From Alphaproteobacteria bacterium (GTDB lineage: Bacteria; Pseudomonadota; Alphaproteobacteria; Rs-D84): a stretch of 64,000 nucleotides of DNA. How positions within the stretch are numbered: position 1 is the first letter of the stretch; the number at the start of each line of letters is the position of its first letter. The DNA is taken from the NCBI GenBank assembly GCA_009783145.1, contig WRHR01000003.1, positions 23,019-87,018 on the forward strand. The letters run 5' to 3'. The translations under genes and the position numbers were made by a program. Below the pieces are notes generated by a model. It made no database searches. It saw only the letters and a list, made by a program, of their open reading frames with translations, and had not been told where the DNA came from. Of this stretch, positions 8,279-57,912 are shown piece by piece.

Positions 8279-9524
8279 TATCCTTCCATCCGCCCGTCAT
8301 GATCGGCGCGAATTCGGCCGGGGACGGAGCATACAGCATCTCGCCTATATCGCCCCCGCCTATTTTTCGCAATATCAGGGTGGAAAACTTTGGGCCGTTC
8401 AGGGACGGAAAGCTCCAGCCTCCCAACTTTATCGGGGCCGCTGCCGTGGAATACATCAGCTCGCTGGACACCGTCATGCCAAAGCCGGTTGCGAAAATCA
8501 ACTGGTCGGTGTTAAGGTAAGGCGTCGCAAGCGCCCCCGCGCGCACGCCGGCGACGCTGGCTGTTCTTACGCTCTCGGACCGCACGGTCATATCTCGCTG
8601 GACATGCAGAGAACCCGAAACATTCACGCTGTCGGCGACCGCATCGCCGCGCGACGACCAGGTCATACCGGGCAATACGCCGCTTCCTTTTAATCTCTTC
8701 GCCGTGATTTTCCTGAATCCGCTGATATCGCCGGTCACGCGGACGGTGCCGAAGGTGGCCTTGGACGGGTCGACGGACGCGCCTTCGGGAAAATAAAGGT
8801 CCGCGCACTGCAGTTCCGGCGCTTCGGCAAACCAGATGTTTCCGTTTGTCGCGTTCAAGCGGTTCGCGTATAACGTGCCGACGTCCGTAAGATTATACTT
8901 GGCCATGTTAAGGTCGCGATACATGGTGTTCATTTCGTCATCGCCAAGATAAGTCCTGTGCAGGTACCGTCGCGATTCGTCTTCGCCCAGAATGTCGGAA
9001 ATTCTGAAAACCAAATCGCCGGCAGAGAAGACATCCGAAGAAATGCTCCACCCGCTGGAACTTACCGCTTCGCCCCCGGCGCCGACAATCGCGGCGTCGG
9101 ATCCCAGGTTTTTCGCGATTGTCGCCACGCGGACTTCTTTGATGTCAACGGGGCGGAAAGCAAGATAGACGTCAATCATCGCGCCTCCGGCCTGAGTGCG
9201 CTTTTCTATGAACCCGGCATAAGGTTGCAACAAGCGCCCCTGCGCTCCGAATTCCTGATTCCAGATTAGATTCACTTCGTCTTCGTCGAATTCTATCTGG
9301 GCGCTGGACGGCCAGTCCGCTTGATTTATGCGGACATAAGCCATCATCGGATCATGCCATGCGGTTATGCGTTTTGATTCGGCGGCATCGGCTATGCTGT
9401 TGCTCATTTCCACCACGCCGTTATAAGCGAACGGCATAATGGCCCCGACGATCGCGATTGCCAGCAAGGTCTCCATCAGACCCGCGCCATGCTCGCTGCG
9501 AAGATATTTGTTTTTTCTTTTCAT
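8274..9524 (-). CDS. Large pseudopilin-like protein with class III signal, paralog 2
   Basis: MKRKNKYLRSEHG|AGLMETLLAIAIVGAIMPF. The first 11 aa and the upstream DNA are near-identical to paralog 3. SSELMYST motif is shared with paralog 1. Confidence 0.55.
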   Translation of the reverse strand: MKRKNKYLRSEHGAGLMETLLAIAIVGAIMPFAYNGVVEMSNSIADAAESKRITAWHDPMMAYVRINQADWPSSAQIEFDEDEVNLIWNQEFGAQGRLLQPYAGFIEKRTQAGGAMIDVYLAFRPVDIKEVRVATIAKNLGSDAAIVGAGGEAVSSSGWSISSDVFSAGDLVFRISDILGEDESRRYLHRTYLGDDEMNTMYRDLNMAKYNLTDVGTLYANRLNATNGNIWFAEAPELQCADLYFPEGASVDPSKATFGTVRVTGDISGFRKITAKRLKGSGVLPGMTWSSRGDAVADSVNVSGSLHVQRDMTVRSESVRTASVAGVRAGALATPYLNTDQLIFATGFGMTVSSELMYSTAAAPIKLGGWSFPSLNGPKFSTLILRKIGGGDIGEMLYAPSPAEFAPIMTGGWKDR

Positions 9525-9530
9525 TTGTTG

Positions 9531-9722
9531 CCTTGCTCGCAGAGTAAAGATTTTTCGGCTTTGCCGAAAAATCAGAGTAACGCTCGCTGCGCTCGCAGAG
9601 TAGGAGAGTAAGAGAGTATCTATAACTCCCTACTCTTCTACTCTCTTACTCTAGCAAACGCTGTGCGTTTGCGTCACTCTGCCGGCGAAGCCGGCGTTAC
9701 TCTGCGCGCTTCGCGCGCTACC
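9531..9722. repeat. Family A element, copy A2 (near-identical to A1)
   Basis: Same architecture and the same position relative to the downstream pseudopilin paralog. Confidence 0.85.
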
Positions 9723-11160
9723 CGCAATTACTTCGTCCGTCCAATCTGCATTGCTTGATGTTTATGCGGCGTTCCAAGCGGCTCCAGAAAACATACTGGC
9801 ACACAAGATTCTGCGCCACCGAGTTATTATTGTAATAAGGCGCGCCGGGCAGCCCCGAAATAATATTTCTGCAGCCGACAGTCTCGCTGTCGTCATTCCC
9901 GGGATTCTTAAGTATCTCGAACGAGTCGTTGTCTATATTTTCGGATAAAACATCCGGCAGCACGGATACTCCGGCGGGGCGAACATCCAGGATTATCGCG
10001 CCGCTGCCGCCTGCCAACAGAGAGCTTGAAATCTGATCGCGAAGGGTCAGATAAGCGGCGGATACCGTCCGCGCTTCGATTCCGCTTTTCGTGGAATACA
10101 TCAGCTCGGTGCTGTCTATGAATACATCCTGCCCGCGCGAAGCGTTTATGAACCCTGAGATTTCAAGCTGTTCGGTATCAATGGAGACATTGCTTAAAAT
10201 GGCGTCGCCATGAATATCCCAGTCATAGGGGCCGACAAAGCTTGTACGCCCAGCCGCCATCGCAAGCGAATTTAACGAAGCTGATTCGGCCTCGACAGAG
10301 CCTATCAATCCATATCTGAACAAGGTATATGCGGAAAGGGACTTCGCGATCAAATCCCCGCGCGAAATATTCAGAGCTCCCGCGCTGTCGCGCGTTTGAA
10401 ATACGGCCTTGTTCGCGATCAAAAGCTCTATCTTGTTCTTGAATCTGCGGTCGTTGCTGGATCCCGTAATGGAAAGCGTGCCGAAGCTCGCGGTATCAAG
10501 CTCCGCATTTTTTGCGGAGAGCTGTGAAATGTTTTTCACATCATAGCCGCCCATATCAAGGTCCGTATGAAATCTGTTTCGCATAATATCCTTGGAGTTT
10601 CGCCGAATCAGCTCCGAAAAGTCATCATCGATCGGGATCAGGACATATATGGCGTCCAAATCAGGTCTTATGCCGAAGTCTTTCAGATTTTTCTCCCATC
10701 CGCCGATGCCATGTAGGATGCCATTGCGGGCGGCTTCGGCGGCGTCCGACCCGATGCGCGCCATCAGCTCGCGCCGTGCGCCTGCGGATAAATTACTGCC
10801 CTTTATTACAAGCAGCGCCAAAACGCCGTTCGCGTTTTTACCGGTCATCAAGGATATTTTCTGCCCCTGCGCGGTCTGTGGAATAAAGCCCAGCGGAAGG
10901 CCGAAGGGCTCTAAAAGATCGGAGAATTCGTCGCCGCCGGCGACACGGACGCCATACCGCAGGTCATCCTTGTTGTACCTGACGAACTCGCGGGCGGCGC
11001 GGGCGGCGCGGGCCACGTGCCTGCTTGATGCGGTCATAATCTGGTCGTTTCTGCGCTCGCTCAGCCGACCTGCCAAAAAGGGCATAAAGGCCATGACCAA
11101 GGCGATTGCCAGCAAAGCTTGCAGCAAAAAGTTTCCACGGGATTCGGTGTTCAAAAACAT
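9718..11160 (-). CDS. Large pseudopilin-like protein with class III-like signal, paralog 1
   Basis: ESRG|NFLLQALLAIALVMAFMPF has Gln at +5; shares LDMGGYDV and TELMYST motifs with paralog 2. Confidence 0.5.
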   Translation of the reverse strand: MFLNTESRGNFLLQALLAIALVMAFMPFLAGRLSERRNDQIMTASSRHVARAARAAREFVRYNKDDLRYGVRVAGGDEFSDLLEPFGLPLGFIPQTAQGQKISLMTGKNANGVLALLVIKGSNLSAGARRELMARIGSDAAEAARNGILHGIGGWEKNLKDFGIRPDLDAIYVLIPIDDDFSELIRRNSKDIMRNRFHTDLDMGGYDVKNISQLSAKNAELDTASFGTLSITGSSNDRRFKNKIELLIANKAVFQTRDSAGALNISRGDLIAKSLSAYTLFRYGLIGSVEAESASLNSLAMAAGRTSFVGPYDWDIHGDAILSNVSIDTEQLEISGFINASRGQDVFIDSTELMYSTKSGIEARTVSAAYLTLRDQISSSLLAGGSGAIILDVRPAGVSVLPDVLSENIDNDSFEILKNPGNDDSETVGCRNIISGLPGAPYYNNNSVAQNLVCQYVFWSRLERRINIKQCRLDGRSNCG

Positions 11161-22888: not shown

Positions 22889-24265
22889 TTATTTTCCCAA
22901 ACATAATTGCCCGAATACGGAATCGGCAACCTCCGATGCGCCGATGACGCCCAGAATCTGGCCTATATTGTCCGCCGCGCGGCGAATATGCTCGGAAAAC
23001 AAATCCATATTGGTCTTTTGTCCTTCAGCTTTTGCCAGTTCATCCGCAGCGGCTTGCAGATGCATGCGCGCGCGCTCATTAAGGGCGACATCGGACTGGG
23101 CGCCATCCAGACGGCTATGCACTTCCGCGCGAATTCGTTCCAACAGCTCTGGTATTCCTTCGCCGGTCAATGCCGAGACGCGAAACGCGAAACGCGAAAC
23201 GCGATTATTATTATCCAGCAAATCACATTTGTTTATGACGATTATTTCATTATCACGCGTTTCGCGTTTCGCGTTTCGCGTCTCGACCCTTATCACCAAA
23301 TCCGCCCTTTCAATTTCCTGGTTGGTTTTTTCAATCCCGATCTTTTCTATCGTATCTTGCGTCTCGCGCAAGCCGGCGGTATCCGCCAATCGCACAAGGT
23401 ACCCGTCTATATCGATTTCGGCCGACACCACGTCGCGCGTAGTGCCTGGGATTTCCGAAACTATCGCGCGCGATTCTCCAACCAAGCGATTGAACAGCGA
23501 CGATTTTCCGGCATTAACCGGCCCTATGATGGCTATATTGAAACCGCTGCGGATAGACCTGGCCGCGGCGCTGCGGGATAATGCTGCTGAAATTTCTTTA
23601 CCCAGGGCACGAGTGCGCGAGAGTATTGTCTCGCCGATATTCGCAGGAAGTTCTTCGGCCGGATAGTCCAGCATTGCGGCGGAATAGGCTGTGATTTCAA
23701 CCATTTGCAAGCGCCAGTTCTCATATACGGCACTGTCCGCGCCGGCGGCAGCGCGCAAAGCGCTTCGCCGCTGGGCATCAGTGCGCGAATCCAAAAGGGC
23801 CGCCAAGCCGTCGGCCTCTATCAAATCCATTTTGCCGTTATCGAAGGCGCGGCGGGCGAACTCGCCGGGATTCGCCAAGCGCGCCCCATACGCGCGCAGG
23901 GTCGCGAATAATTTTTCAATTACGGCCGCGGCGCCATGAACATGAAACTCAATAATATCTTCGCCGGTGAAACTGTGTGGGGCCTGGAAATAAATGGCAA
24001 TCGCGCGGTCAATCACATCGCTGCTTTTATCAACCAGGTCGGCGAGATACGCATGGCGGGGCAGCGGTTCCCCTCCTGTGGAGGGGTGGCTCGCGAATGA
24101 AATGAGCGAGACGGGGTGGTTCGTGTAATGTTCGCAGTTGGCTAAACCACCCCGGCCCTTCGGGCCACCCCTCCACAGGAGGGGAACCGCTGCCCCGCTG
24201 ACGCGCACGACCGCAACGCCCGCTTTTCCATGTCCCGAAGATAATGCGAAAATCGTATCGGTCAT
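22889..24265 (-). CDS. mnmE: tRNA modification GTPase MnmE, carrying two in-frame palindromic-element insertions
   Basis: FTGEDIIEFHVHG N-domain, G-domain GPVNAGKSSL, NKCDL, C-terminal CLGK. An extra 47-aa segment (VPLLWRGG...GGEPLP) is encoded by element B, and the RVETRNAKRETR/RVSRFAFRVS segments by element I. Confidence 0.88.
   Translation of the reverse strand: MTDTIFALSSGHGKAGVAVVRVSGAAVPLLWRGGPKGRGGLANCEHYTNHPVSLISFASHPSTGGEPLPRHAYLADLVDKSSDVIDRAIAIYFQAPHSFTGEDIIEFHVHGAAAVIEKLFATLRAYGARLANPGEFARRAFDNGKMDLIEADGLAALLDSRTDAQRRSALRAAAGADSAVYENWRLQMVEITAYSAAMLDYPAEELPANIGETILSRTRALGKEISAALSRSAAARSIRSGFNIAIIGPVNAGKSSLFNRLVGESRAIVSEIPGTTRDVVSAEIDIDGYLVRLADTAGLRETQDTIEKIGIEKTNQEIERADLVIRVETRNAKRETRDNEIIVINKCDLLDNNNRVSRFAFRVSALTGEGIPELLERIRAEVHSRLDGAQSDVALNERARMHLQAAADELAKAEGQKTNMDLFSEHIRRAADNIGQILGVIGASEVADSVFGQLCLGK
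23175..23275. repeat. Family I (gcgaaac)n palindrome, copy I1, inside mnmE G-domain coding region
   Basis: gagacgcgaaacgcgaaacgcgaaacgcg ... cgcgtttcgcgtttcgcgtttcgcgtctc. Confidence 0.8.
24057..24197. repeat. Family B element, copy B2, 141 bp in-frame inside mnmE
   Basis: ggggcagcggttcccctcctgtggaggggtgg ... ccacccctccacaggaggggaaccgctgcccc; 141 bp equals 47 codons. Confidence 0.85.
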
Positions 24266-28722: not shown

Positions 28723-29109
28723 CTATTTCTTTACAGTTATCTTCCCAACCGCGTCATAGCCAAAGTACTTGTTAATCCGCGCACGGAATTCCTCTGTTCT
28801 GTATGATAATTCCATTGCAAACGCGGGCTGCACCGCTTTCAGCGTTATGTTGAATTTTGTAGGGGCGCATTTTTGCGCCCTTTTAATCGGTCGCTTTGCG
28901 ACCGACGGGGCACAAGAATGTGCCCCTACACTACGTATCCCTTGCAGCTTCGCCAAACGCGCCAAGTCCGCGCCTATGATTTCGTTCCACCGCGCGGCCA
29001 AGTCTGCATCAGACGCGCGCACGCCGAATATTTTCAGCAAGCCTCCGAACGCCCCGCCCAAGCTTTGCGGGCGCGAAGTTCGGAGTGAAAGATTAGGTTT
29101 TGCTTTCAT
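28723..29109 (-). CDS. DciA-like (DUF721) protein with in-frame palindromic insertion
   Basis: C-terminal LKAVQPAFAMELSYRTEEFRARINKYFGYDAVGKITV fits the DUF721/DciA family; the segment VGAHSCAPSVAKRPIKRAQKCAPT is encoded by hairpin element F. Confidence 0.5.
   Translation of the reverse strand: MKAKPNLSLRTSRPQSLGGAFGGLLKIFGVRASDADLAARWNEIIGADLARLAKLQGIRSVGAHSCAPSVAKRPIKRAQKCAPTKFNITLKAVQPAFAMELSYRTEEFRARINKYFGYDAVGKITVKK
28858..28930. repeat. Family F nested-hairpin element in-frame in dciA-like gene
   Basis: tgtaggggcgcatttttgcgccc..ggtcgctttgcgacc..ggggcacaagaatgtgcccctaca. Confidence 0.75.
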
Positions 29110-29165
29110 TTACGATTTACGATTTACGATTTAGGGAGTCAAATCTTAAATCGTAAATCTTAAAT
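29108..29165. repeat. Family J (acgattt)n palindrome with GGGAGT core, copy J1
   Basis: ttacgatttacgatttacgatttaGGGAGTcaaatcttaaatcgtaaatcttaaatt; abuts the dciA-like start codon and the mltA stop. Confidence 0.8.
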
Positions 29166-31683: not shown

Positions 31684-31784
31684 ATGGCAAATGGCAAATG
31701 TAAAATGGCAAATGTAAGGTGATAAAGAGATAAACTGTGCTCTTACCTTCCACATTTTACATTTGCCATTTGCCATTTGCCATC
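31684..31784. repeat. Family C (caaatgg)n palindromic element, intergenic copy C1
   Basis: atggcaaatggcaaatgtaaaatggcaaatgtaagg ... ccttccacattttacatttgccatttgccatttgccat. Confidence 0.8.
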
Positions 31785-36004: not shown

Positions 36005-36066
36005 TTTAACTGAGAACTGAAAACTGAGAACTGAGAGCTTAGTTTTCAGCTTTCAGTTTTCAGTTG
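36005..36066. repeat. Family H (ctgaaaa)n palindrome, copy H1
   Basis: ttaactgagaactgaaaactgagaactgagagcttagttttcagctttcagttttcagtt; abuts the uvrB start codon. Confidence 0.8.
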
Positions 36067-36115: not shown

Positions 36116-38626
36116 TTGAAGGCAAGACATCGCCGGGCAATTTATTGGACTATTTTTTCAGTAGCGGCGGCGGCGGTTATGCTGCTGGTGGTCGTTCCGC
36201 CTATGATAAACCTTGACCATTTAAAGCCTAATTTCGAGCGCGCAATCCTCTCCCAAACCGATATCCCCGCAAAGATAAACGGCCATATAAATATAAGCTT
36301 GCTGGGGCGCATAAGCATCAAGGCGCATAATGTAAGCGTCCCGAACGGCAGTATAGATTCCGTTCTATTCGCGATACCGCTGTCAAAAATATTCGATATA
36401 AATACGGCGACATTGGACGAGAAAATCACTATTTCGGGGGCCAGGCTTGATATCGGGGATTTGACCGCGCCCAAAATCGGGGCCGGGATAGAGATTCGAA
36501 ACGCGCTTGTTAATTTCATGGACAGGGATTACAGGATAATCACCGGCGCGCTAAAAAATGGAAGCTTTGCGGGAACCGTGCGCACCGAGCAGCATAAGTA
36601 CAGCATAGAAACCAGGGGCGATCAGTTCTCGGTGCTTAACAAGAACGAGGGACTGTCAATTCGCGGACGACTTAATCAGGGAGGCGGCGCGCACGCGATA
36701 TTATCCATAGATACGAATAACATCAACGCTTGGTTCGATTTTTTCGAACCGAAGATAAACCAGCACGTCGCATTAACAATGGAAGTGGATTGGGACGGCG
36801 GATACGGATTCCGGTTCCAAGACATACATGGAACCGTCGGCGAGGATAATTTTACGGGCAGCATTGATTTACCAGACGGGGACGCCGCGCGGACGATACG
36901 ATTCGCGTCCGATAATATCGACTTCGATTTGTCTTTTCTGCTGACCGGCCGGTCTTTCCTTATGGGCGCGAATTTGGATTTGGACCTCGGCGGAAATATT
37001 AAATTTATGAACACGGTTTACAGGCATGTAAGGCTGGCCGCAACCGGCCAAGGCGACAAGATAATCATAGACAACTTGGAATTTGAAAACGATTCGATCA
37101 AGGGTTCGCTGGCCGGGGAAATTACGGCGGACGGGGCGCATAATCTGGCCTTGCGTTTTTTGCGCGGGAACGCGGAGATATATTGCCTGTTCAACGGCAC
37201 GCCGGAAGTCTGGCAGTGCGACGAATACGAGTACAGCGATAAGAATCTGTTCGCAAGGGGAACTCTGGCAGTAAAGGGGGACTCGTTCGCGGCGGCCTTG
37301 CAATCTCCGGACGCGATGCCCGAGAATTTCGACTTTGCGCGCAACTTAAGTTTCTTGGGCAACAACGGAACGGTATCTTTTGAGTTCGCGAACGCTTTGG
37401 GTCAGATCACAATAAAAAATAAAAAGCAGAGAATCGACTATACCGCGGTTCAAGGTAAAAGCCTGGATTGGCTGGGGGCGGGATTTGAGTTTCTGCCCGC
37501 AAAGATGCGCGATGCGGTCGGCCGGATAACTTGGGACGGCAAGGATATCTCATTCGTGCCAACCGGGGAGCGGTGGGAACTGACCATGCAGGGAAATTTC
37601 TTCTTTCTGTCCGGCATCAGCGCCAAGGAGTTCTTGACCGCTTTTTACCCGACGCTGGAGCTTGGGTTCGCGAATGATTTCCCTTACCATATGTCCGGCA
37701 CTTATTCCAAACCGAATATAAGGGATTTGGAAATCCACATAGCGGACCATATCTTCCGCGGCAGCGCCAATGCTTCGAACATAACCCTGCGCACCGAGAC
37801 TTTGGACCTGGATATGTTTGCGAATCGCGGGTATTTCGACAATTACGAAAAAATGCAGTTTCTGGCCGCCGCGCCGATTACGACGCCGTTTTCGCTTGGC
37901 GGCGCCAGCATTTCTCTGTCCGCCCCCAGCATAATCATGAACGGCGAAGAATATAATAACTTCGTTTATTCTGTGCGCGGCAATACCCAGGACTTTTCAA
38001 TCACGGACGATGCGCGCGGCAGCCTTTTGGTATCGCTTAAAAGAAGGAGCACCAATACCTATGACATTTTGTTAAAGCTGAACCGGTTTGCGTTCAGCGG
38101 GCCGCTGCTGGCCGCCGCCTCGCCGTTAAATATCTCCGATTCCGTGGTTACGGGCCAGGCGCAGCTTATGACGGGCGGGAGAATAGCCTATGACTTTTGG
38201 AATAACTTGAAGGGCGCCGTGGATTTAAGCTTTGACGGCGGGATTCTGAACGGCATAGGCACGGACGCGTTTTACGCGCGCGCGGCAGATATAACGCGAA
38301 CGACGGCCGAAGACGCGATCGCGCATGCGGTGTCCGGGGGCAACACAAGAATAAAATCGTTCCGCCTTTCGGGAGAGTACGAGAACGGGGATTTTCAAAC
38401 CACGCGCAGGTTTCTGCTTAACGCGCGAAATACGGAGATGTCGGGACACCTGCAATTGATTGACGGAATCCTGACGGCGCAAATCGGGATTCTGCTGCGC
38501 GGGACGTCCATAGAGCCCCGGCCCATATCGTTAACCATATTGAAGTCGGGTATGCGCAGCTATTCCTTATCGGAAATGATGAGAGTCTTTGATCCGGAGT
38601 ACTTGGCGGAATTTGTAAAAATGTGA
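36116..38626 (+). CDS. AsmA family protein
   Basis: N-terminal TM anchor, then the LDHLKPNFERAILSQTDIPAKINGHI pattern typical of the AsmA N-domain; 836 aa. Confidence 0.6.
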   Translation: MKARHRRAIYWTIFSVAAAAVMLLVVVPPMINLDHLKPNFERAILSQTDIPAKINGHINISLLGRISIKAHNVSVPNGSIDSVLFAIPLSKIFDINTATLDEKITISGARLDIGDLTAPKIGAGIEIRNALVNFMDRDYRIITGALKNGSFAGTVRTEQHKYSIETRGDQFSVLNKNEGLSIRGRLNQGGGAHAILSIDTNNINAWFDFFEPKINQHVALTMEVDWDGGYGFRFQDIHGTVGEDNFTGSIDLPDGDAARTIRFASDNIDFDLSFLLTGRSFLMGANLDLDLGGNIKFMNTVYRHVRLAATGQGDKIIIDNLEFENDSIKGSLAGEITADGAHNLALRFLRGNAEIYCLFNGTPEVWQCDEYEYSDKNLFARGTLAVKGDSFAAALQSPDAMPENFDFARNLSFLGNNGTVSFEFANALGQITIKNKKQRIDYTAVQGKSLDWLGAGFEFLPAKMRDAVGRITWDGKDISFVPTGERWELTMQGNFFFLSGISAKEFLTAFYPTLELGFANDFPYHMSGTYSKPNIRDLEIHIADHIFRGSANASNITLRTETLDLDMFANRGYFDNYEKMQFLAAAPITTPFSLGGASISLSAPSIIMNGEEYNNFVYSVRGNTQDFSITDDARGSLLVSLKRRSTNTYDILLKLNRFAFSGPLLAAASPLNISDSVVTGQAQLMTGGRIAYDFWNNLKGAVDLSFDGGILNGIGTDAFYARAADITRTTAEDAIAHAVSGGNTRIKSFRLSGEYENGDFQTTRRFLLNARNTEMSGHLQLIDGILTAQIGILLRGTSIEPRPISLTILKSGMRSYSLSEMMRVFDPEYLAEFVKM

Positions 38627-44107: not shown

Positions 44108-46684
<2,577 letters not shown>

Positions 46685-49372: not shown

Positions 49373-49405
49373 TTGTCGCCTCTTTTGTGGGATTTATAGC
49401 AAATA

Positions 49406-49468
49406 AATTAGCGATTAGCAATTAGCAATTATCAGGGAGTTTAATTGCTAATCGCTAATTGATAATTG
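49406..49468. repeat. Family G (aattagc)n palindrome with GGGAGT core, copy G1
   Basis: aattagcgattagcaattagcaattatcaGGGAGTttaattgctaatcgctaattgataattgctaatt. Confidence 0.8.
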
Positions 49469-49499
49469 CTAATTAAAAAACCGGCAAAGCGCGGATTTT

Positions 49500-50537
49500 T
49501 TATGAAAGCGCTGCCGTTATCTGGTCCTGCATCTCGAACGTGCCGAAGACGACCCATGCGATGACTGCGGAAACCAGCAGTATTCCGACCGAGTTCAAGA
49601 TATTTGACATGCTTTCCATCTTGCGGACGGATGCGTCCAGATAGTCGTTCGCTATCTTTTCAAGGTTCGCGTCAAAGCCGTTCATATCGGCGTAAATGGC
49701 CAGGTCGCCGATGATTTCGTCATTCGGGAAACGCGTTCCTGTGTTCTCCAAGGCCCGCCCCAGATTGTCGCCGTTGGCGATAAATCCTATCGCGCGCTCC
49801 AGAATATCCTTCAGGTATTTGCCGGAATTATCGGCCAGCATTTTCATAGACATAGGCAAACTGCCGCCCGCGGCAACCATAGCCGCCAAAGACATCATCC
49901 AGCCGACGGATACGGAAATCTTGTACATAGACCAAGGCGGAATCGCATCGAACATGACGCGCAAGCGCCCCGACCAATTCGTGAACGAAGCCCAAATCAG
50001 AGCAATCAGGGCAATAAACGCGGCGATTATAATCAGAAAGTAGTTATTGGAAAAATCGGATACGGCGATGAGCGTTGCCGCCGCGCCGCGCCAAGCTATA
50101 TCGCCTCCGGCCGCTTCCCTTAACGGGGGCACCAGATATAATCCGACCGCCATGATTATGACAAAGGTCAACGCCAGCAAAACCGACGGATACAAAATCG
50201 CGTCCATCATGGCTTTCTTAATTTTGCTGATTCCTTCGCCGACGCGAACCACGTTATCCAAAGCGATGGAAAGCTTTGAAATATCGCCGACGGCCAACAT
50301 AAGAGTTTCGTTGCCGGGCGACCATCCGCGCGTGGCGTCGGGAAAAGGCAGACCGCGCTCCAGATTCTCGCGCCAGGCATTGATGACCAGCGCGAAAGGC
50401 TCGTTCGGCTTGTCCCCGTTCTTGCTTTCGGTCGCATAAACCCTGTCCAGCGCATCCATCAAAGTGAAGTTATTACGCAGCATTGATGCCAGCTTGCGAT
50501 ATAAATTCATCCGCTTGTCCGTATCGAAGCCGAACAT
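49500..50537 (-). CDS. GspF/PilC/TadB-family platform protein (short form)
   Basis: LYRKLASMLRNNFTLMDALDRV matches the T2SSF domain signature; three TM helices; about 345 aa from the internal Met, with the TTG-start extension lying in repeat G2. Confidence 0.55.
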   Translation of the reverse strand: MFGFDTDKRMNLYRKLASMLRNNFTLMDALDRVYATESKNGDKPNEPFALVINAWRENLERGLPFPDATRGWSPGNETLMLAVGDISKLSIALDNVVRVGEGISKIKKAMMDAILYPSVLLALTFVIIMAVGLYLVPPLREAAGGDIAWRGAAATLIAVSDFSNNYFLIIIAAFIALIALIWASFTNWSGRLRVMFDAIPPWSMYKISVSVGWMMSLAAMVAAGGSLPMSMKMLADNSGKYLKDILERAIGFIANGDNLGRALENTGTRFPNDEIIGDLAIYADMNGFDANLEKIANDYLDASVRKMESMSNILNSVGILLVSAVIAWVVFGTFEMQDQITAALS

Positions 50538-50576
50538 GAATTTCGCGTATAAGATATCAAGTTTCGTTGCCAAAAC

Positions 50577-50737
50577 AATTAGCAATTAGCAATTAGCAAT
50601 TAGCAATTAGCAATTTTTTCATTACTTATGCTTATTACCAACCAACTAATTTTTCCTTTATTTGTTTTAAAGCAACCAACTTTCTCACAACCGCAATCTA
50701 AATAATTGCTAATTGCTAATTGCTAATTGCTAATTAA
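50577..50737. repeat. Family G (aattagc)5 ... (gctaatt)5 palindrome with about 90-bp spacer, copy G2
   Basis: Left arm 50577-50614 overlaps the GspF-like 5' end; right arm 50705-50737 overlaps the GspE-like stop; adjacent actcccggc (GGGAGT on the other strand). Confidence 0.8.
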
Positions 50738-52377
50738 TACACTCCCGGCTGGTCCAGTAGTCCCACCCAGCGTTCCAGCTCCTCAACGCCGATGATGCCT
50801 TTCAGCATCAGCTCTATCGCCGCCTCTTTCAACGTGCGCCCGTCCAGTTCTTCCAGCCAATATTTTACCGCATCCGCGGAATTCCCCGCAAGCGCCAGTT
50901 CTAGGAATCTATTGTCTGTGATGATAATCTCGCCCGCTTTTATGCGCCCTATGGTGCCCTTTTCCGCGCAGTACTTGCATCCGTCGCCGCGGAAGTAAGT
51001 CTGGCGCAGGCCTGTTTCTCCGAACGCTTCCAGCACGCGCTTGTACGCGGGATGATCGGGAAAATTAACCAGCATTTTTCTGCACTGCGGGCAAAGCTTG
51101 CGGAACAAGCGCATCGACACCAGCCCGCGCATCATGGTTTCGTCTTTCAGCTTGAACCCTTCCACGCCCATATCCAAAAGGCGGGTAAGCGCCGCCATTG
51201 CGGAATTGGCATGCAAGGTGGTCCAAACGCTGTGCCCCGACAATGCCCCCTTTACCGTCAATTGAGCCGCGCTTAAGGTGCGGATTTCGCCGACCATCAT
51301 CACATCCGGATCGCTGCGCAGGGCGGATTGCAAAGCTTCGGTGAATTTCTCTTCCCGCTGCTCTTCGTTGTTCGCATTAACGACTGGAATCTGATGGCTG
51401 CCGAAAATGCGCCTTTCCGCCGGGTCTTCGATCGTAATCAGATTGATTTCATAATCGCGCTCTTTCAGCATAAGCGACATATTCTGGAAAAGAGTCGTGG
51501 ACTTTCCGCTGCTGGTCGGACCCGCGACCACGATAAGGCCGGTCGGGAAAGACCGCATGCGCATCAAAAGATCGCGCTCGTACTCGCCGAATTCCTGCTC
51601 GGTCTTTATGGTCTCGGCCGGGTTGTCGTACAGCAGGCGCATCACCACATAGCGCGATCCGAACGCGATCGGATTGAACTGCATTCTAATGCCCATAATG
51701 CCGGCCGGAAGATACAGGTCCCGCGTGCCGCGCAAAGGAGTGCGCCCGTCTTTCTGCGCGCTCTGATACTCGTTCTGCGCATAGTTGGAATTGGACTGGT
51801 CGGCGGATGCGAATGCTGCGCGGACGAAAGACTCGCCCCATTGAGAGTTGTATTCCAACACGGTCTGCATGCTGCCGTCCATGCGGAAATAAACGGTGGT
51901 CTGGTCGGCGACCTCTATATGAATATCGGATACTTTCAGGCTTGCGGCGCGCGCGATTATATCAACGAAGTCCTTTTGCATCTGGTTATCGTAATCCAAG
52001 GGCGCGCGTGATGCGATGCCCGCGAACTTCGCGTCGTTAAATTTGTATATGCCGGAAATAAGGCCCAGATCGCTGTAAAAAGGCTCTTTGGCCGTGCGCT
52101 TTTCTTTTTTAAGCAGCTCCAGGAACGAAATCACCCGCCCGTCATAGCGGTGAGTGCGAGAAATGACGATTTCGCCGCCGGAAAAGTACGCGAGCAAGTT
52201 CTGCGTATCTCTTGCCACTTCCAGCGCGCCGCCATTCGCGGTCAGCAAGGCGTTTGTGTTTGAGAACAAATACTCGATGATTTCTTTTTGCGTCGACGCG
52301 CCGATATTATTCGGCACGCTTGGGGCCGCGCTGCGCGCGGGCGAAGGAGTATTTTCAAGATTCTTTCGTGCTGACAT
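50734..52377 (-). CDS. GspE/PilB-family secretion/assembly ATPase
   Basis: GPTSSGKSTTL Walker A, MVGEIR, TLHANSA, C-terminal CPQC..x24..CKYC zinc motif. Confidence 0.8.
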   Translation of the reverse strand: MSARKNLENTPSPARSAAPSVPNNIGASTQKEIIEYLFSNTNALLTANGGALEVARDTQNLLAYFSGGEIVISRTHRYDGRVISFLELLKKEKRTAKEPFYSDLGLISGIYKFNDAKFAGIASRAPLDYDNQMQKDFVDIIARAASLKVSDIHIEVADQTTVYFRMDGSMQTVLEYNSQWGESFVRAAFASADQSNSNYAQNEYQSAQKDGRTPLRGTRDLYLPAGIMGIRMQFNPIAFGSRYVVMRLLYDNPAETIKTEQEFGEYERDLLMRMRSFPTGLIVVAGPTSSGKSTTLFQNMSLMLKERDYEINLITIEDPAERRIFGSHQIPVVNANNEEQREEKFTEALQSALRSDPDVMMVGEIRTLSAAQLTVKGALSGHSVWTTLHANSAMAALTRLLDMGVEGFKLKDETMMRGLVSMRLFRKLCPQCRKMLVNFPDHPAYKRVLEAFGETGLRQTYFRGDGCKYCAEKGTIGRIKAGEIIITDNRFLELALAGNSADAVKYWLEELDGRTLKEAAIELMLKGIIGVEELERWVGLLDQPGVY

Positions 52378-52452
52378 TTACGATTTACGATTTGCGATTT
52401 ACGAATTACGATTTATGGGGAGTCAAATCGTAATTCGTAAATCGTAAATTTT
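52378..52452. repeat. Family J element, copy J2
   Basis: tttacgatttacgatttgcgatttacgaattacgatttatgGGGAGTcaaatcgtaattcgtaaatcgtaaatttt; lies between the GspE-like start and the PilP-like stop. Confidence 0.8.
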
Positions 52453-52455
52453 AAA

Positions 52456-53064
52456 TTATTCACCGGCATAAACGCCTAAAACAGTAATCTCGCCGCCTTT
52501 GGATAGAACCACGCCTTCGTCGATCGATACGGATTCAACGCGGTAGTCGTCCAGATTCTTGCCGACGGAAACTTTTCTTCTCTGCCCGTTGGTGACATCC
52601 TCGACGGTCGCGAACAGCTGGCGTCCTGCGCCTACGATTTCAATCAGGCGATATCTTTCGTTTATCGGGGACGGGGCAGGTTTGCTGGTCGCGGGAGCGC
52701 GTTCTGGCTGGCGGCTTTCCATGGACATCTTCTGCTGTTCCAACTTTTCCCTTTCCAGCTCCAGCCGCTGGCGTTCCAGCTCTATCGCGCCGGTCTGAGC
52801 CTGCGAAGCCCCGCTCATAGCGTCCATTTCGTTGCGGATGCGCACTTGCTCGGCCGCCAGGCGATCCATATCCAGTTGCAACTGAGCCCTTTCCTTTTCC
52901 AACTGCATCAGGATTTTTTCCTGCTCCAGGTCGGCGATCATCTGAAACAGCGACCCTTCCGGATTGTAATCCTCGACATCTTCCGCGGCGCGGACGCCAA
53001 TCGGCGAAATCGCCGCCAGTACTGCCAATAGCATTAGTTTATTTTGCATAGATTCTAACCTCAT
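52456..53064 (-). CDS. PilP/GspC-like periplasmic protein (signal peptide, coiled coil, C-terminal beta domain)
   Basis: Signal MLLAVLAAISPIGVRA, long Glu/Gln/Leu-rich coiled coil, C-terminal YRLIEIVGAGRQLFATVED...VSVGKNLDDYRVESVSIDEGVVL resembling PilP/GspC HR domains. Confidence 0.45.
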   Translation of the reverse strand: MRLESMQNKLMLLAVLAAISPIGVRAAEDVEDYNPEGSLFQMIADLEQEKILMQLEKERAQLQLDMDRLAAEQVRIRNEMDAMSGASQAQTGAIELERQRLELEREKLEQQKMSMESRQPERAPATSKPAPSPINERYRLIEIVGAGRQLFATVEDVTNGQRRKVSVGKNLDDYRVESVSIDEGVVLSKGGEITVLGVYAGE

Positions 53065-54280
53065 AGTTCCAAACCCTGGTGCGGGCGTCCCATTTTACCG
53101 CCTTTAAATAAAGCGGCGAAATCCCTTCGAAAATCTCTATGAATTCAAGGGGTTTTAATTTCGAGCTCGCATTCACCGTAACAACGCTTATGTCCTGCGT
53201 GGCGATTCCCTGGCGAACGGTTTCGATAACAGGCCTTACATTTGCACTCGCGCCTATTGTCTGAAACAGAGTATTCACCGAGTACACTATATTTTCGACC
53301 AAGAATTGGGGCGTTTGCGGCTGGCTGGGCAATTTGGGCAGCGTCACGCTGATAACGGCATCCGAGTCCGTGTTTTCAGTGATGAAGACATTGTTCATCA
53401 TCAAGCGCGCGGATTCGTGCATTCCGGCAACCGTGCCGTATGTGCGGCGCAGGTTGGCGCGCGCGGTCAGTCCGTCGCACTCGGCCCCGGTCTGAACCCA
53501 TCCCGGAATCTGCTGCATGACATAGGCGATCCCGCGCCAGCATTGGTCCGCGCGAAGCTCTGCGTCGGGCAAGTCGTCATAAGGCATCGCGATGCGGACG
53601 GGCTCAGGCGCAGCAACACGAGCATTTTTAGCTTCCAGTTTGCGTTTATATTCTTCCAGAACCTCTGGGCTAATATTTGCTTTCTGGGGCTTTGGGGCAA
53701 TCAATTTCGCGATCGGCTCATGAAAGAAATACCAAACGCCGAACGCAAAGGCCGCGAAAACAAGAAGCGAGATAATGTTTCCTGAAACGCTGCCTATGGG
53801 CGTCAGCGAGACTTTGGAGTTCCCCGCGACAATATCTTTCAGCGGTTTTTCCACCGCGCGCGGAATGGTCCAGTACCCAGGAGCGACCATGATCCCCCAA
53901 TCGGGCAATTCCGATAAATTCGCATACTCGCGTTTGGCGTCGTTTTCATTAGAGAACAACTGGTCGAAGATTATGATGTTATTGCGGACCGCGACAATCC
54001 AGAAACCTTGTGGCACAAAGAATGCCGCCAGAAAACTGTTGTATTCGGAAAAGGAATTAATAACCTCCACTGCGGCGATTTTCATCCCTCTGCGATGACC
54101 CAAAGCGCGCCCGCCTACGCCGACCATGGACTTGAACTCGGCATAAAACTTTACGGTTCCGGGAATTTGCTTGGACAGGGTTGCGGCGAAATTACGCGGA
54201 TTTTGACCGGCGGCCAAGGGCTGCCAAAACAGCCCGACCGCGTATTTTTTACGCTCAATAGTGATTACTTGCAGTGGCAA
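53039..54280 (-). CDS. Bitopic inner-membrane assembly protein (GspL/PilM-PilN-PilO-like topology)
   Basis: About 165-aa cytoplasmic domain, single TM (NIISLLVFAAFAFGVWYFF), about 220-aa periplasmic domain; overlaps the PilP-like gene by 26 nt. Confidence 0.4.
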   Translation of the reverse strand: MPLQVITIERKKYAVGLFWQPLAAGQNPRNFAATLSKQIPGTVKFYAEFKSMVGVGGRALGHRRGMKIAAVEVINSFSEYNSFLAAFFVPQGFWIVAVRNNIIIFDQLFSNENDAKREYANLSELPDWGIMVAPGYWTIPRAVEKPLKDIVAGNSKVSLTPIGSVSGNIISLLVFAAFAFGVWYFFHEPIAKLIAPKPQKANISPEVLEEYKRKLEAKNARVAAPEPVRIAMPYDDLPDAELRADQCWRGIAYVMQQIPGWVQTGAECDGLTARANLRRTYGTVAGMHESARLMMNNVFITENTDSDAVISVTLPKLPSQPQTPQFLVENIVYSVNTLFQTIGASANVRPVIETVRQGIATQDISVVTVNASSKLKPLEFIEIFEGISPLYLKAVKWDARTRVWNYEVRIYAK

Positions 54281-54374
54281 AATTCTCTCCGGTTTTCCCC
54301 TTCTATGGGATTATAACAAATAAACTATGAAATAAGGAAGGGAAAAGTGAAGGGGCGTTCCCGCCCCTATAACA

Positions 54375-54698
54375 CTATAGCCCCTGGCAATCATAAACAA
54401 GCGTAGTCATAACAAACGAGCGTTCCGGCGCGAACATTCTCCATTCGTTCTGGCGCGTATCCTTGGACTTTATCCAAAACGCGTTGCCGTTTCCGCGCGC
54501 TGCAATTTGATTTTTCACAAAGCGCACCGCGTCATCCTCGGAATACATGGAAACATCGGATTCCAGTTGGTACAAGAATGTGCAGGCCGTTGGTTCCGCT
54601 TTCAATTGCACCAATTCATCGGCGCCGGATTTAAGCTTGACAGTATTGCTGCACGCAGCCAGCGCAACCGCCGTTATTGCCAATAAAACTTTTCTCAT
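54375..54698 (-). CDS. Small lipoprotein (possible pilotin-like)
   Basis: MRKVLLAITAVALAACS lipobox; immediately upstream of the membrane assembly gene in the same direction. Confidence 0.35.
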   Translation of the reverse strand: MRKVLLAITAVALAACSNTVKLKSGADELVQLKAEPTACTFLYQLESDVSMYSEDDAVRFVKNQIAARGNGNAFWIKSKDTRQNEWRMFAPERSFVMTTLVYDCQGL

Positions 54699-55075
54699 TT
54701 CGCATCCTCCTTTGTTTGCTCTTGAAATATTTTGTCGCCCCACCAGTGCGGAATCAACTCTTTCAATCTTATGGTTTTTCTTGTTTCAAAATCCATCATG
54801 ATTTCTGTGTCTTTATTCTTATCGGACAGTTGCATCATCCATTCCCGGCATGCGCCGCAAGGAGCCCAGTTGTTCAGTTCTTCTTTTGGCGGGAATGGCC
54901 CGACGCTCGCTAAAATCCGTTTTACAACCACTTCGCCGGTTTCAGACGCCATTTTCAATATCGCAACTCGTTCTGCGCACATATTGCCGACACCGCTGCA
55001 TGAATCGAAACATATTCCTGTGAAAATTTTACCGCTTTCGCTTTCTATCGCGCTTGCCACGCCGCCGCCAGACAC
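54695..55075 (-). CDS. cdd: Cytidine deaminase
   Basis: CAERVAI and PCGACREWM zinc-binding motifs; the N-terminus appears short, so the true start may be a non-ATG upstream. Confidence 0.7.
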   Translation of the reverse strand: MSGGGVASAIESESGKIFTGICFDSCSGVGNMCAERVAILKMASETGEVVVKRILASVGPFPPKEELNNWAPCGACREWMMQLSDKNKDTEIMMDFETRKTIRLKELIPHWWGDKIFQEQTKEDAK

Positions 55076-57133: not shown

Positions 57134-57202
57134 TTTAAACTGAGAGCTGAAAACTGAAAACTGAGAACCAGATTTCAGTTCTCAGTTTTCAGTTTTCAGT
57201 TT
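57134..57202. repeat. Family H element, copy H2
   Basis: aactgagagctgaaaactgaaaactgagaaccagatttcagttctcagttttcagttttcagtt; supplies the DUF374 gene stop codon and abuts the lpxK start. Confidence 0.8.
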
Positions 57203-57912
57203 TTTATTTCTCCTGGCTCTATCTTGGGCAACTTAAATTCAGCATCGGTATCTTGTAGCTGTTTTATCATAAATTTTTCAAGATCTTCACGTGCGGAATT
57301 AAAATTGTCTTTGGTTATGAACACCGGCTGACCCACATTGCAGATTATCTTTGAAAACGGCTTGGCGACCAAGTATCTGTCCCAACGCTTTTGAAACCAA
57401 GGACGCGAACTTGAATAACATACCGGGATGATCGGCGCGCCGGTCATGCGCGCGAAGTAAAGCGCGCCGTCGTTCAGGCGCATCAAAGGCCCCTTTGGGC
57501 CGTCGGGAGAGAGCGCAAGGATATAGCCTTCGTTAAGGCGCCGCACGCCTTGGCGCAGCGCGGATACGGCCCCGTCGCGACCGGTGGAGCCAAATATGGC
57601 GCGCAAACCGAACAAGCGCTGTAATTTCGCCATCAGGCGTCCATCCTTGTGGCGGGATGAAAGCGCGAATCCGCGAAATCCGTACCTGCGGACAATGGGG
57701 GAAAGCATCATGGATCGCCCATGCCAAAAGACGAATATGGCGGGCTTTTTGCGGTGTTCCAGGAAAACTTGTTCGCCATTGATTTTTTTTCTGGAAGTAA
57801 AATAAACGAGGTAAATCCCCAAAAACATAACGGAGGCCAAGACCCATTGCACTGGGGCGGCGCCAAACGCTTTTTTCCAAAATCTTTTCCAAACGTCTTT
57901 AAATTTCTTCAT
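57196..57912 (-). CDS. DUF374-family (lysophospholipid acyltransferase-like) lipid A-associated protein
   Basis: FVFWHGR, LSSRHKDGRL, ALSPDGPKGP motifs; start at MKKFKDVWK; upstream of lpxK. Confidence 0.6.
   Translation of the reverse strand: MKKFKDVWKRFWKKAFGAAPVQWVLASVMFLGIYLVYFTSRKKINGEQVFLEHRKKPAIFVFWHGRSMMLSPIVRRYGFRGFALSSRHKDGRLMAKLQRLFGLRAIFGSTGRDGAVSALRQGVRRLNEGYILALSPDGPKGPLMRLNDGALYFARMTGAPIIPVCYSSSRPWFQKRWDRYLVAKPFSKIICNVGQPVFITKDNFNSAREDLEKFMIKQLQDTDAEFKLPKIEPGEIKN

Follow-up and report, generated by a model that had tools for sequence, protein, structure and literature searches.

Chromosomal genes for a probable type IVb pilus motor, unusually scattered, in the gut alphaproteobacterial order Rs-D84

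Which machine is encoded by five consecutive genes lying between lipid-A and fatty-acid genes on the chromosome of a reduced-genome gut alphaproteobacterium of the order Rs-D84? The genes occupy positions 49500-54743 of a 64-kb stretch of contig WRHR01000003.1 (the window, that is, the whole stretch analyzed), where the open reading frame (ORF) listing gives five minus-strand ORFs, all in the same direction, with DUF374-lpxK-lpxC as the upstream flank and fabD-(small ORF)-fabG-gyrB as the downstream flank. An earlier reading made from the letters alone (the sequence-only reading) had placed five co-directional genes between lipid-A and fatty-acid genes, which the ORFs and both flanks bear out, and had regarded them as a minimal, degenerate or undescribed filament machine. 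The type IVb pilus (T4bP) family includes the Escherichia coli bundle-forming pilus (BFP) and the thin pilus of plasmid R64. In the present analysis, four core proteins of the module were found to be homologous to T4bP components, to be encoded in the canonical T4bP order with their motifs intact, and to be conserved throughout the lineage. In this context, the module is quite probably the inner-membrane assembly sub-complex of a T4bP machine of the R64 thin-pilus/BFP class, carried on the chromosome. It is a known kind of machine, vertically inherited in an unusual scattered layout, and not a new class; what remains unusual is this layout, along with the secretin, peptidase and retraction ATPase that were not found nearby.

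The ATPase matched the Pfam family T2SSE (4.6e-65) and holds a complete catalytic set, formed by Walker A (GPTSSGKST), Asp box (ITIEDPAE), Walker B (VMMVGEIR) and His box, together with the C-terminal zinc motif C429xxC...C467xxC. Its top match in the Protein Data Bank (PDB) was BfpD (E 4.3e-81, residues 33-532, 276 bits), the matches to GspE (5.9e-47, 164 bits) and to PilB/PilF (about 1e-40) being weaker. Identity was 36% to the ATPase of a T4bP locus of Bosea and 34% to the bfpD product and, in phmmer, the ATPase family matched the Bosea ATPase at about 1e-99. In public records, NCBI labels this gene (50734-52377) 'Flp pilus assembly complex ATPase component TadA', a name that appears to be a mis-annotation. 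Membership of the Tad/Flp systems was rejected, since the TadA-family model TIGR03819 scored 44.7 against a cutoff of 373.15, and the N-terminal region and Cys4 motif of the ATPase are of the GspE/BfpD type.

The platform protein matched T2SSF (4.7e-20) in two stretches and has three transmembrane (TM) segments. Its family matched BfpE at about 1e-60 and the Bosea platform at about 1e-72 in phmmer, and a weak match to the TcpE N-domain was further detected. The sequence-only reading was right to call this protein GspF-like, but not to consider it unusually short at about 345 amino acids (aa): with 357-361 aa against 352 aa in BfpE, the most likely length being 357 aa, it is of normal size, since a platform of about 350-357 aa is the T4bP norm.

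The 413-aa protein is of the PilO2 (PF06864)/BfpC type, in which a single TM segment joins a cytoplasmic actin-like domain to a periplasmic PilO/GspL/GspM-like domain. Identity is about 20% to characterized T4bP proteins and 25% to the Bosea PilO2, against which the family scored 2e-24 in phmmer. The 202-aa protein exceeded the curated cutoff of TIGR03021 (pilP_fam; 39.6 bits against 34.65, residues 88-187), and its architecture comprises a signal/anchor as the single N-terminal hydrophobic segment, a coiled coil, a Pro-rich linker and a C-terminal beta domain. Its gene holds the position of bfpU, and of the small ORF in the Bosea and E. coli loci, and phmmer revealed no detectable similarity between BfpU and the 202-aa protein. 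The profile searches that the sequence-only reading had proposed thus matched ATPase (T2SSE), platform (T2SSF) and PilP (TIGR03021), and its identification of a GspE/PilB-type ATPase keeping the tetra-Cys zinc motif, of a bitopic GspL/PilMNO-like protein, of a PilP/GspC-like protein and of a small lipoprotein holds, with a correction to the start codon of the lipoprotein.

Three annotated T4bP loci were compared for gene order. In enteropathogenic E. coli (EPEC), plasmid pMAR2 carries bfpA-G-B(secretin)-C-U-D-E-F-P-H-I-J-K-L; in Bosea sp. RAC05, pBSY19_1 carries TcpQ, secretin, PilO2, hypothetical, ATPase, platform, PilT-like, hypothetical and PilV; and the E. coli MPF_I plasmid p2017.17.03CC_2 carries pilin, TcpQ, secretin, PilO2, hypothetical, ATPase, platform, ATPase, A24 peptidase and transglycosylase. 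The succession of PilO2/BfpC, small periplasmic protein, ATPase and platform is identical in the module and in all three. The sequence-only reading had argued for novelty because the order agreed with neither the type II secretion system (T2SS), the type IVa pilus (T4aP) nor Tad, a comparison from which T4bP had been left out; the argument fails because the order is that of T4bP in the EPEC, Bosea and E. coli loci. Moreover, the ATPase and the platform group with a known system, namely with BfpD and BfpE. T2SS membership was rejected on model scores (TIGR02533 for GspE, 227.8 against 630.25; TIGR02120 for GspF, 47.7 against 424), as well as on gene order and on the lack of GspD and of G-K pseudopilins near the module, and T4aP (PilB/PilC equivalogs, pilMNOPQ operon) was likewise rejected on model scores. 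An undescribed class of type IV filament machine, apart from all known classes, as the sequence-only reading had contemplated, could draw on the unusual layout and on the low identity to characterized T4bP proteins (PilO2 about 20%, ATPase 34-36%); yet each core protein matches T4bP best and the order is the T4bP order, so that such a class is extremely unlikely, even though the part identities given in that reading were themselves right.

The likeness to characterized systems extends beyond order. As in the module, the BFP of EPEC combines a bitopic actin-like protein, a small periplasmic protein, a Zn-binding extension ATPase and a platform of about 350 aa; however, its genes form part of one 14-gene cluster on a plasmid that also encodes bundlin, BfpG, a secretin (BfpB), a retraction ATPase (BfpF), a peptidase (BfpP) and minor pilins, whereas here only the four core genes and a new lipoprotein gene stand together, on the chromosome, between lpxC and fabD. 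The R64 thin pilus, PAPI-1 and Tfp7 share PilO2 (PF06864), PilP (TIGR03021) and large PilV-like pilins with the present system, and a PF08805 PilS-like pilin with its relatives, but their loci lie on plasmids, integrative and conjugative elements (ICEs) or islands, next to genes for TcpQ and for PilN, a lipoprotein secretin. Unlike in R64-type systems, no shufflon was found here, the PilV-like genes are three and not one, and the genes are passed on vertically within a reduced genome. Among loci of cultured organisms, the nearest is that of Bosea pBSY19_1, which gave the highest identity among plasmid records and has the same core order, but keeps TcpQ, secretin, PilT-like ATPase and PilV together. 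In the T2SS, GspL-GspM-GspE-GspF (with GspC) display the same architecture and presumed mechanics, a bitopic actin-like protein clamping a Zn-binding hexameric ATPase to a polytopic platform, and the PilP beta domain found here is analogous to the GspC HR domain. T4bP systems are typically a single transferable locus (plasmid, ICE or island), and in this respect the present genes differ, being chromosomal and distributed over at least three loci amid housekeeping genes.

A scan of species-representative genomes yielded 254 stretches encoding a PilO2 relative, of which the best 80 were taken as the relatives' loci (cited below as L plus a number). These belong to metagenome-assembled genomes (MAGs) from termite, ruminant, bird and human guts, among them 'Candidatus Enterousia', a member of Rs-D84, an order whose genomes mostly stay below 1 Mb and for which dependence on a partner is suspected (PMC12306168). 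The synteny comparison suggested by the sequence-only reading showed the four core genes colinear, on one strand and beside lpxK-lpxC, in all 74 relatives whose contig was long enough. PilP was present in 79 of the 80 loci, lpxC in 77 and the lipoprotein in 71, and lpxK-lpxC synteny with the module was kept in about 77. Median identity to the window proteins was 74% for the ATPase (PilQ), 62% for the platform (PilR) and 55% for LpxC, while Walker B and Cys4 were kept in 75/75 ATPase orthologues. Such conservation fits a working machine under strong purifying selection, and not a degenerate remnant. The missing neighbors usual at T4bP loci, the strongly reduced genomes (PMC12306168) and the hairpin arrays that have invaded intergenic gaps in this genome might point to what is left of an earlier pilus locus that lost its secretin, peptidase and pilin genes as the genome shrank; but the four genes are intact and colinear across the informative relatives, the ATPase is conserved beyond LpxC, the catalytic and zinc motifs persist in every orthologue, and pilin-like substrates with conserved cleavage motifs survive. 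We give this reading almost no credence, and the 'minimal or degenerate' machine of the sequence-only reading is contradicted by the lineage-wide colinearity and by an ATPase more conserved than LpxC. As regards public records, several alphaproteobacterial MAGs (L011-L014, L025, L046) are titled 'uncultured Muribaculaceae bacterium'.

Pilin-like proteins are encoded in the same window, about 40 kb from the module, in a five-gene minus-strand block at 5712-11160 (Table 1). Its three large proteins present a class III signal-peptide-like motif followed by a hydrophobic helix interrupted by proline, and these motifs are conserved in relatives at 27-40% identity. The N-terminal motif of the 480-aa protein recurs in L092 and L093, and NCBI names its 478-aa version 'shufflon system ... 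pilus tip adhesin PilV'. The 416-aa protein matched the Bosea PilV in phmmer (3.7e-5) and, in the globular region, in blastp (1.5e-6), its family comprising 59 proteins found only in alphaproteobacterial MAGs and unnamed metagenome contigs; the 441-aa protein matched the 416-aa protein (2e-11) and the Bosea PilV (6e-6), here too in the globular part, with its motif conserved in relatives. Furthermore, the large pilin-like proteins share contigs with pilO2. In the 159-aa zinc-ribbon protein, FxLYD was detected above cutoff (29.5 bits against 23), the Zn_ribbon_4 and DUF3426 matches being weak, and the order of its gene followed by that of the small secreted protein is the same in L074, L092 and L093. 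In L074 the pilin block lies 4 kb from pilO2, with a 152-aa PilS-like pilin between them. This 152-aa pilin (L074, L092) reached 24.1 bits for PF08805 against a cutoff of 22 and has an N_methyl motif, 27% identity to BfpA, a C-terminal cysteine pair and a leader of six residues, which is short for a T4b pilin; in L092 its gene lies between dnaX and ompA-skp-lpxD. An OmpA-family (peptidoglycan-binding) gene adjoins the PilS-like pilin gene, followed by skp, in both loci (L074 8451-9134; L092 5434-6108). The sequence-only reading, which reported no major pilin in the window, was thus correct for a small major pilin but missed the three large pilin-like genes at 6760-11160.

Several observations weigh against the T4bP assignment. 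To display a pilus on its surface, a diderm cell that carries lipopolysaccharide (LPS) genes requires a passage through the outer membrane. The search for a secretin, TcpQ/BfpG, a prepilin peptidase and a retraction ATPase yielded none of them in the window, in the 10 kb past its left end, where nothing was pilus-related, or within ±10 kb of the module in the 80 relatives. In phmmer, all proteins of the Bfp and Bosea loci served as queries against the complete ORF sets of the window and of about 90 loci: the Pfam-annotated window genes include no Secretin and no A24 peptidase, the phmmer queries BfpB, BfpP, TcpQ and the secretin of Bosea gave none, as the sequence-only reading had stated of secretin and prepilin peptidase in the window, and the large flank ORFs, when clustered and the unassigned clusters scanned with Pfam, proved to be housekeeping and mobile-element genes only. 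The secretin gene lies directly upstream of pilO2 in the three reference loci, and a secretin is mandatory in the TXSScan T4bP model (PMC6668835). In addition, no small major pilin was found in the 64-kb window, and the PilV-like assignment depends on N-terminal motifs and weak matches, which makes these proteins candidate pilins: the model of the 416-aa protein (long N-terminal helix and beta sheet; mean pLDDT, a predicted model-confidence score, of 57) is usable at residues 20-180 only, being poor in the C-terminal half, and Foldseek gave no significant fold match. Finally, stable hairpin arrays part pilP, pilQ and pilR in this genome and the TTG start of pilR is without an obvious Shine-Dalgarno sequence, so pilR expression may be unusual.

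Part of the missing equipment may be encoded elsewhere. The G/xxxxE cleavage motifs (the slash marking the cleavage site) conserved in four pilin families imply, as far as motifs can tell, a prepilin peptidase gene somewhere in the genome. T4bP loci that borrow a peptidase are documented (PMC3984277, PMC6668835), and the PAPI-1 and B. pseudomallei Tfp7 loci also lack the gene, which is supplied from elsewhere (PMC3984277).

As to the outer membrane, the lipoprotein encoded beside pilO2 deserves attention. A tblastn match occurs at the same position in 71/80 relatives, with a strongly conserved alignment, and no Pfam, NCBIfam or PDB family was recovered for it, a 27-sequence profile included. 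A word-indexed search returned nothing beyond the lipoprotein itself, and an exhaustive search of 1.84 billion proteins led to 41 cluster representatives; the few matches to large proteins (FG-GAP, IQ-motif, Matrixin/Peptidase_M10) were judged spurious. The lipoprotein is lineage-specific and is probably an outer-membrane-anchored accessory of the pilus machine. A secretion or pseudopilus machine, in which a short periplasmic filament pushes proteins out, perhaps with a non-secretin outer-membrane partner such as this lipoprotein, is compatible with the lack of a secretin near the module in the 80 relatives, with the lipoprotein gene taking the place held by the secretin in the reference loci, and with the small secreted protein encoded beside the pilin trio. 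T4bP systems, in fact, secrete proteins (TCP, TcpF; Cof, CofJ). However, a 90-residue lipoprotein alone cannot form a channel, and the PilS/BfpA-like pilin of relatives has the C-terminal cysteine pair typical of filament-forming pilins. PilP-type beta domains, besides, normally bind secretin N0 domains, which suggests that a secretin is encoded elsewhere. We consider the pseudopilus reading quite unlikely.

Suppose, in contrast, that Rs-D84 is truly without secretin and retraction ATPase: the motor, the lipoprotein and three giant PilV-like pilins would then form a re-engineered contact organelle docking onto a partner cell, possibly as a short filament that passes through the outer membrane without a secretin or that cooperates with a VirB-type type IV secretion system (T4SS). 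This scenario is improbable; if true, these obligately dependent cells would use the organelle to attach to a partner cell and take resources from it.

The R64-type signatures (PilO2, TIGR03021 PilP, PilV-like proteins and, in relatives, PF08805 PilS) also bring to mind a conjugation or T4SS-associated contact pilus which, as in R64 and PAPI-1, would hold donor and target for VirB-type transfer of DNA or effectors. In many relatives virB3-virB4 are found 5-9 kb upstream of the module (e.g., L007 697-3416; L009 196-2912), which makes this role a serious alternative; a VirB4-like cluster is present in 33 loci, and L092 has a gene for a VirD4-like coupling protein close to its pilin block. Nevertheless, virB proximity may reflect only conserved synteny in a very compact genome, neither a shufflon recombinase nor PilV C-terminal cassettes were seen, relaxase and transfer genes are not adjacent to the module, and T4SS genes are not in the window; on balance, we hold this role to be unlikely. 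A DNA-uptake (competence) pilus that scavenges DNA or nucleotides for a bacterium without biosynthetic pathways is very improbable, even if type IV filaments commonly serve DNA uptake (PMC6668835) and Rs-D84 genomes are devoid of nucleotide biosynthesis (PMC12306168). Indeed, ComEA, ComEC and DprA were not seen in the window or the loci, and no retraction ATPase was found. Moreover, T4bP-class machines are not, to our knowledge, the class usual for transformation.

Returning to the T4bP machine as the favored reading, its operation can be outlined by homology. The hexameric PilQ/BfpD-type ATPase would be held at the membrane by two partners, the PilR/BfpE-type platform and the cytoplasmic actin-like domain of the PilO2/BfpC-type protein; in BFP, N-BfpC, which is similar to the cytoplasmic domain of GspL, interacts with both BfpD and BfpE (PMC3984277). 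ATP hydrolysis would drive the platform to lift processed pilins from the inner membrane into the filament base, and PilP and the periplasmic domain of PilO2 would join this motor to an outer-membrane component. The pilin substrates would be encoded away from the module, as the PilV-like trio 40 kb off and, in relatives, the PilS/BfpA-like major pilin; the trio probably serves to prime or to cap this filament, as a tip or initiation complex, and as adhesins. By analogy, the most likely use would be that of an adhesive or contact pilus fixing metabolically dependent cells to a partner cell or a host surface. The episymbiotic Saccharibacteria, partner-dependent and with tiny genomes, retain type IV pili mediating host binding (PMC9894109, PMC12206443); this is a functional analogy only, since they belong to another phylum with monoderm-like cells and their machines are not T4bP-class.

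Table 1. Coordinates of the module genes, pilin block genes and hairpin arrays in the 64-kb window
Feature	Position	Strand	Remarks
Small lipoprotein gene	54375..54698	-	107 aa; lipobox LAAC; two conserved Cys; immediately upstream of pilO2
PilO2/BfpC-type gene	53039..54280	-	413 aa; bitopic inner-membrane protein
PilP-family gene	52456..53064	-	197-202 aa; periplasmic protein
BfpD/PilQ(R64)-type extension ATPase gene	50734..52377	-	547 aa; Cys4 zinc motif
BfpE/PilR-type platform gene	49500..50585	-	357-361 aa; probable TTG start at 50573
Large PilV-like pilin-like protein	9718..11160	-	480 aa; N-terminus ...SRG/NFLLQALLAIALV (SRG/NFLLQ); Q at +5
Large PilV-like pilin-like protein	8274..9524	-	416 aa; ...SEHG/AGLMETLLAIAIVG (SEHG/AGLME); E at +5
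Large PilV-like pilin-like protein	6760..8085	-	441 aa; ...SELG/SMMIEILLSLAIA (SELG/SMMIE); paralogue of the 416-aa protein
Zinc-ribbon/TM/FxLYD/DUF3426 membrane protein	6265..6744	-	159 aa; always downstream of the pilin trio
Small secreted protein	5712..6191	-	159 aa; completes the pilin block; no family; N-terminal signal-like segment
Inverted array (ATTTACG)n / (CGTAAAT)n	52376-52456		loop GGGGAGTC; fills the pilP-pilQ gap; RNA fold -29.7 kcal/mol, z -7.05
Inverted arrays (AATTAGC)n ... (GCTAATT)n	50576-50735		80-93 nt spacer; fill the pilQ-pilR gap; RNA fold -60 kcal/mol, z -7.6
Inverted heptamer array	49403-49474		loop CAGGGAGTT; between pilR and fabD; RNA fold -29.4 kcal/mol, z -6.9
Arrays, examples	5478-5595, 6146-6273, 8159-8231, 23174-23285, 29108-29165, 31684-31783		intergenic
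Arrays, further examples	36008-36065, 46506-46683, 57137-57203		intergenic

With regard to gene boundaries, the lipoprotein starts at the ATG at 54698 (107 aa, MRKVLLAITAVALAAC) and not at the GTG at 54743, in agreement with relatives and with the ENA/NCBI gene calls. For the platform, the TTG at 50573 is the most likely start, giving 357 aa beginning MATKLDILY; L010 reads MATRLDILY, and the NCBI call is also of 357 aa. The genes are not uniformly 'tightly packed', as formerly described: pilO and pilP overlap, but the remaining gaps measure 94, 78 (pilP-pilQ) and about 150 (pilQ-pilR) nucleotides (nt). A scan for promoters and terminators gave counts not above those of shuffled sequence, and one terminator-like hairpin lies 3' of the lipoprotein gene. 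Between lpxC and the lipoprotein gene, an additional minus-strand ORF (54695-55075) has a cytidine-deaminase-like CAE...PCGxC motif; its tblastn matches were limited to contigs of the same organism, with 0/80 relatives.

The pilP-pilQ and pilQ-pilR gaps are filled by inverted heptamer hairpin arrays in this genome only; the closest relative (73% PilO identity) has gaps of 4-14 nt and no arrays. All three module arrays fold as RNA far better than shuffled sequence, and the stems of the pil module start directly after a stop codon and finish at or just before the next start codon. About 20 such arrays occupy intergenic sites of the window, each built from a tandem 7-8 nt unit, a short loop or a 60-120 nt spacer, and then the reverse-complement array, with the repeat unit differing from site to site; the arrays are a trait of this genome, and not of the pilus module. 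The sequence-only reading had the ATPase gene bracketed by GGGAGT-core palindromes, which is valid upstream, where GGGGAGTC forms the loop, but not downstream, where the arms are 80-93 nt apart and GGGAGT (50741-50746) is no part of the palindrome but belongs to the final codons of the ATPase gene. Of the roughly 20 sites, only 3-4 have GGGAGT or ACTCCC as their loop. A heptamer array, TTTGCTC x 4.6, was also seen at 2892-2923, within the signal-peptide coding region of a 521-aa periplasmic-binding-protein gene (MKKFALCSLLFALCAC...); therefore, the repeat process reaches coding sequence too.

Two further features of the window were recorded. The segment 58000-64000 is a block of low G+C content (37-38%, against about 50% elsewhere in the window) that matches a contig with resolvase, M78 peptidase, Beta_protein and a phage P4 cII-like gene; it is probably a mobile element that entered a site which in relatives holds SIMPL, glycosyltransferase or virB genes. 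At 36116-38626, on the plus strand, an 836-aa protein with a weak AsmA N-terminal match (E 7.5e-5, below cutoff) and 39% identity in L084 may be an AsmA-type outer-membrane lipid-transport protein.

In brief, parts of this system are already named by automated annotation (PilO2, PilV), and it is not described as an Rs-D84 system in PMC12306168 or PMC3984277, the former of which reports type IV pili for another lineage and none for Rs-D84; the labels 'TadA' and 'hypothetical protein' in these MAGs mask one coherent system. With these data, the T4bP class of machines comes to include a chromosomal form that is scattered and inherited vertically. For the order Rs-D84 ('Candidatus Enterousia' and its relatives in termite guts), a widespread uncultured gut order with suspected partner dependence, a pilus motor kept in 74/74 informative relatives, and more conserved than an essential LPS enzyme, provides a testable handle on attachment.

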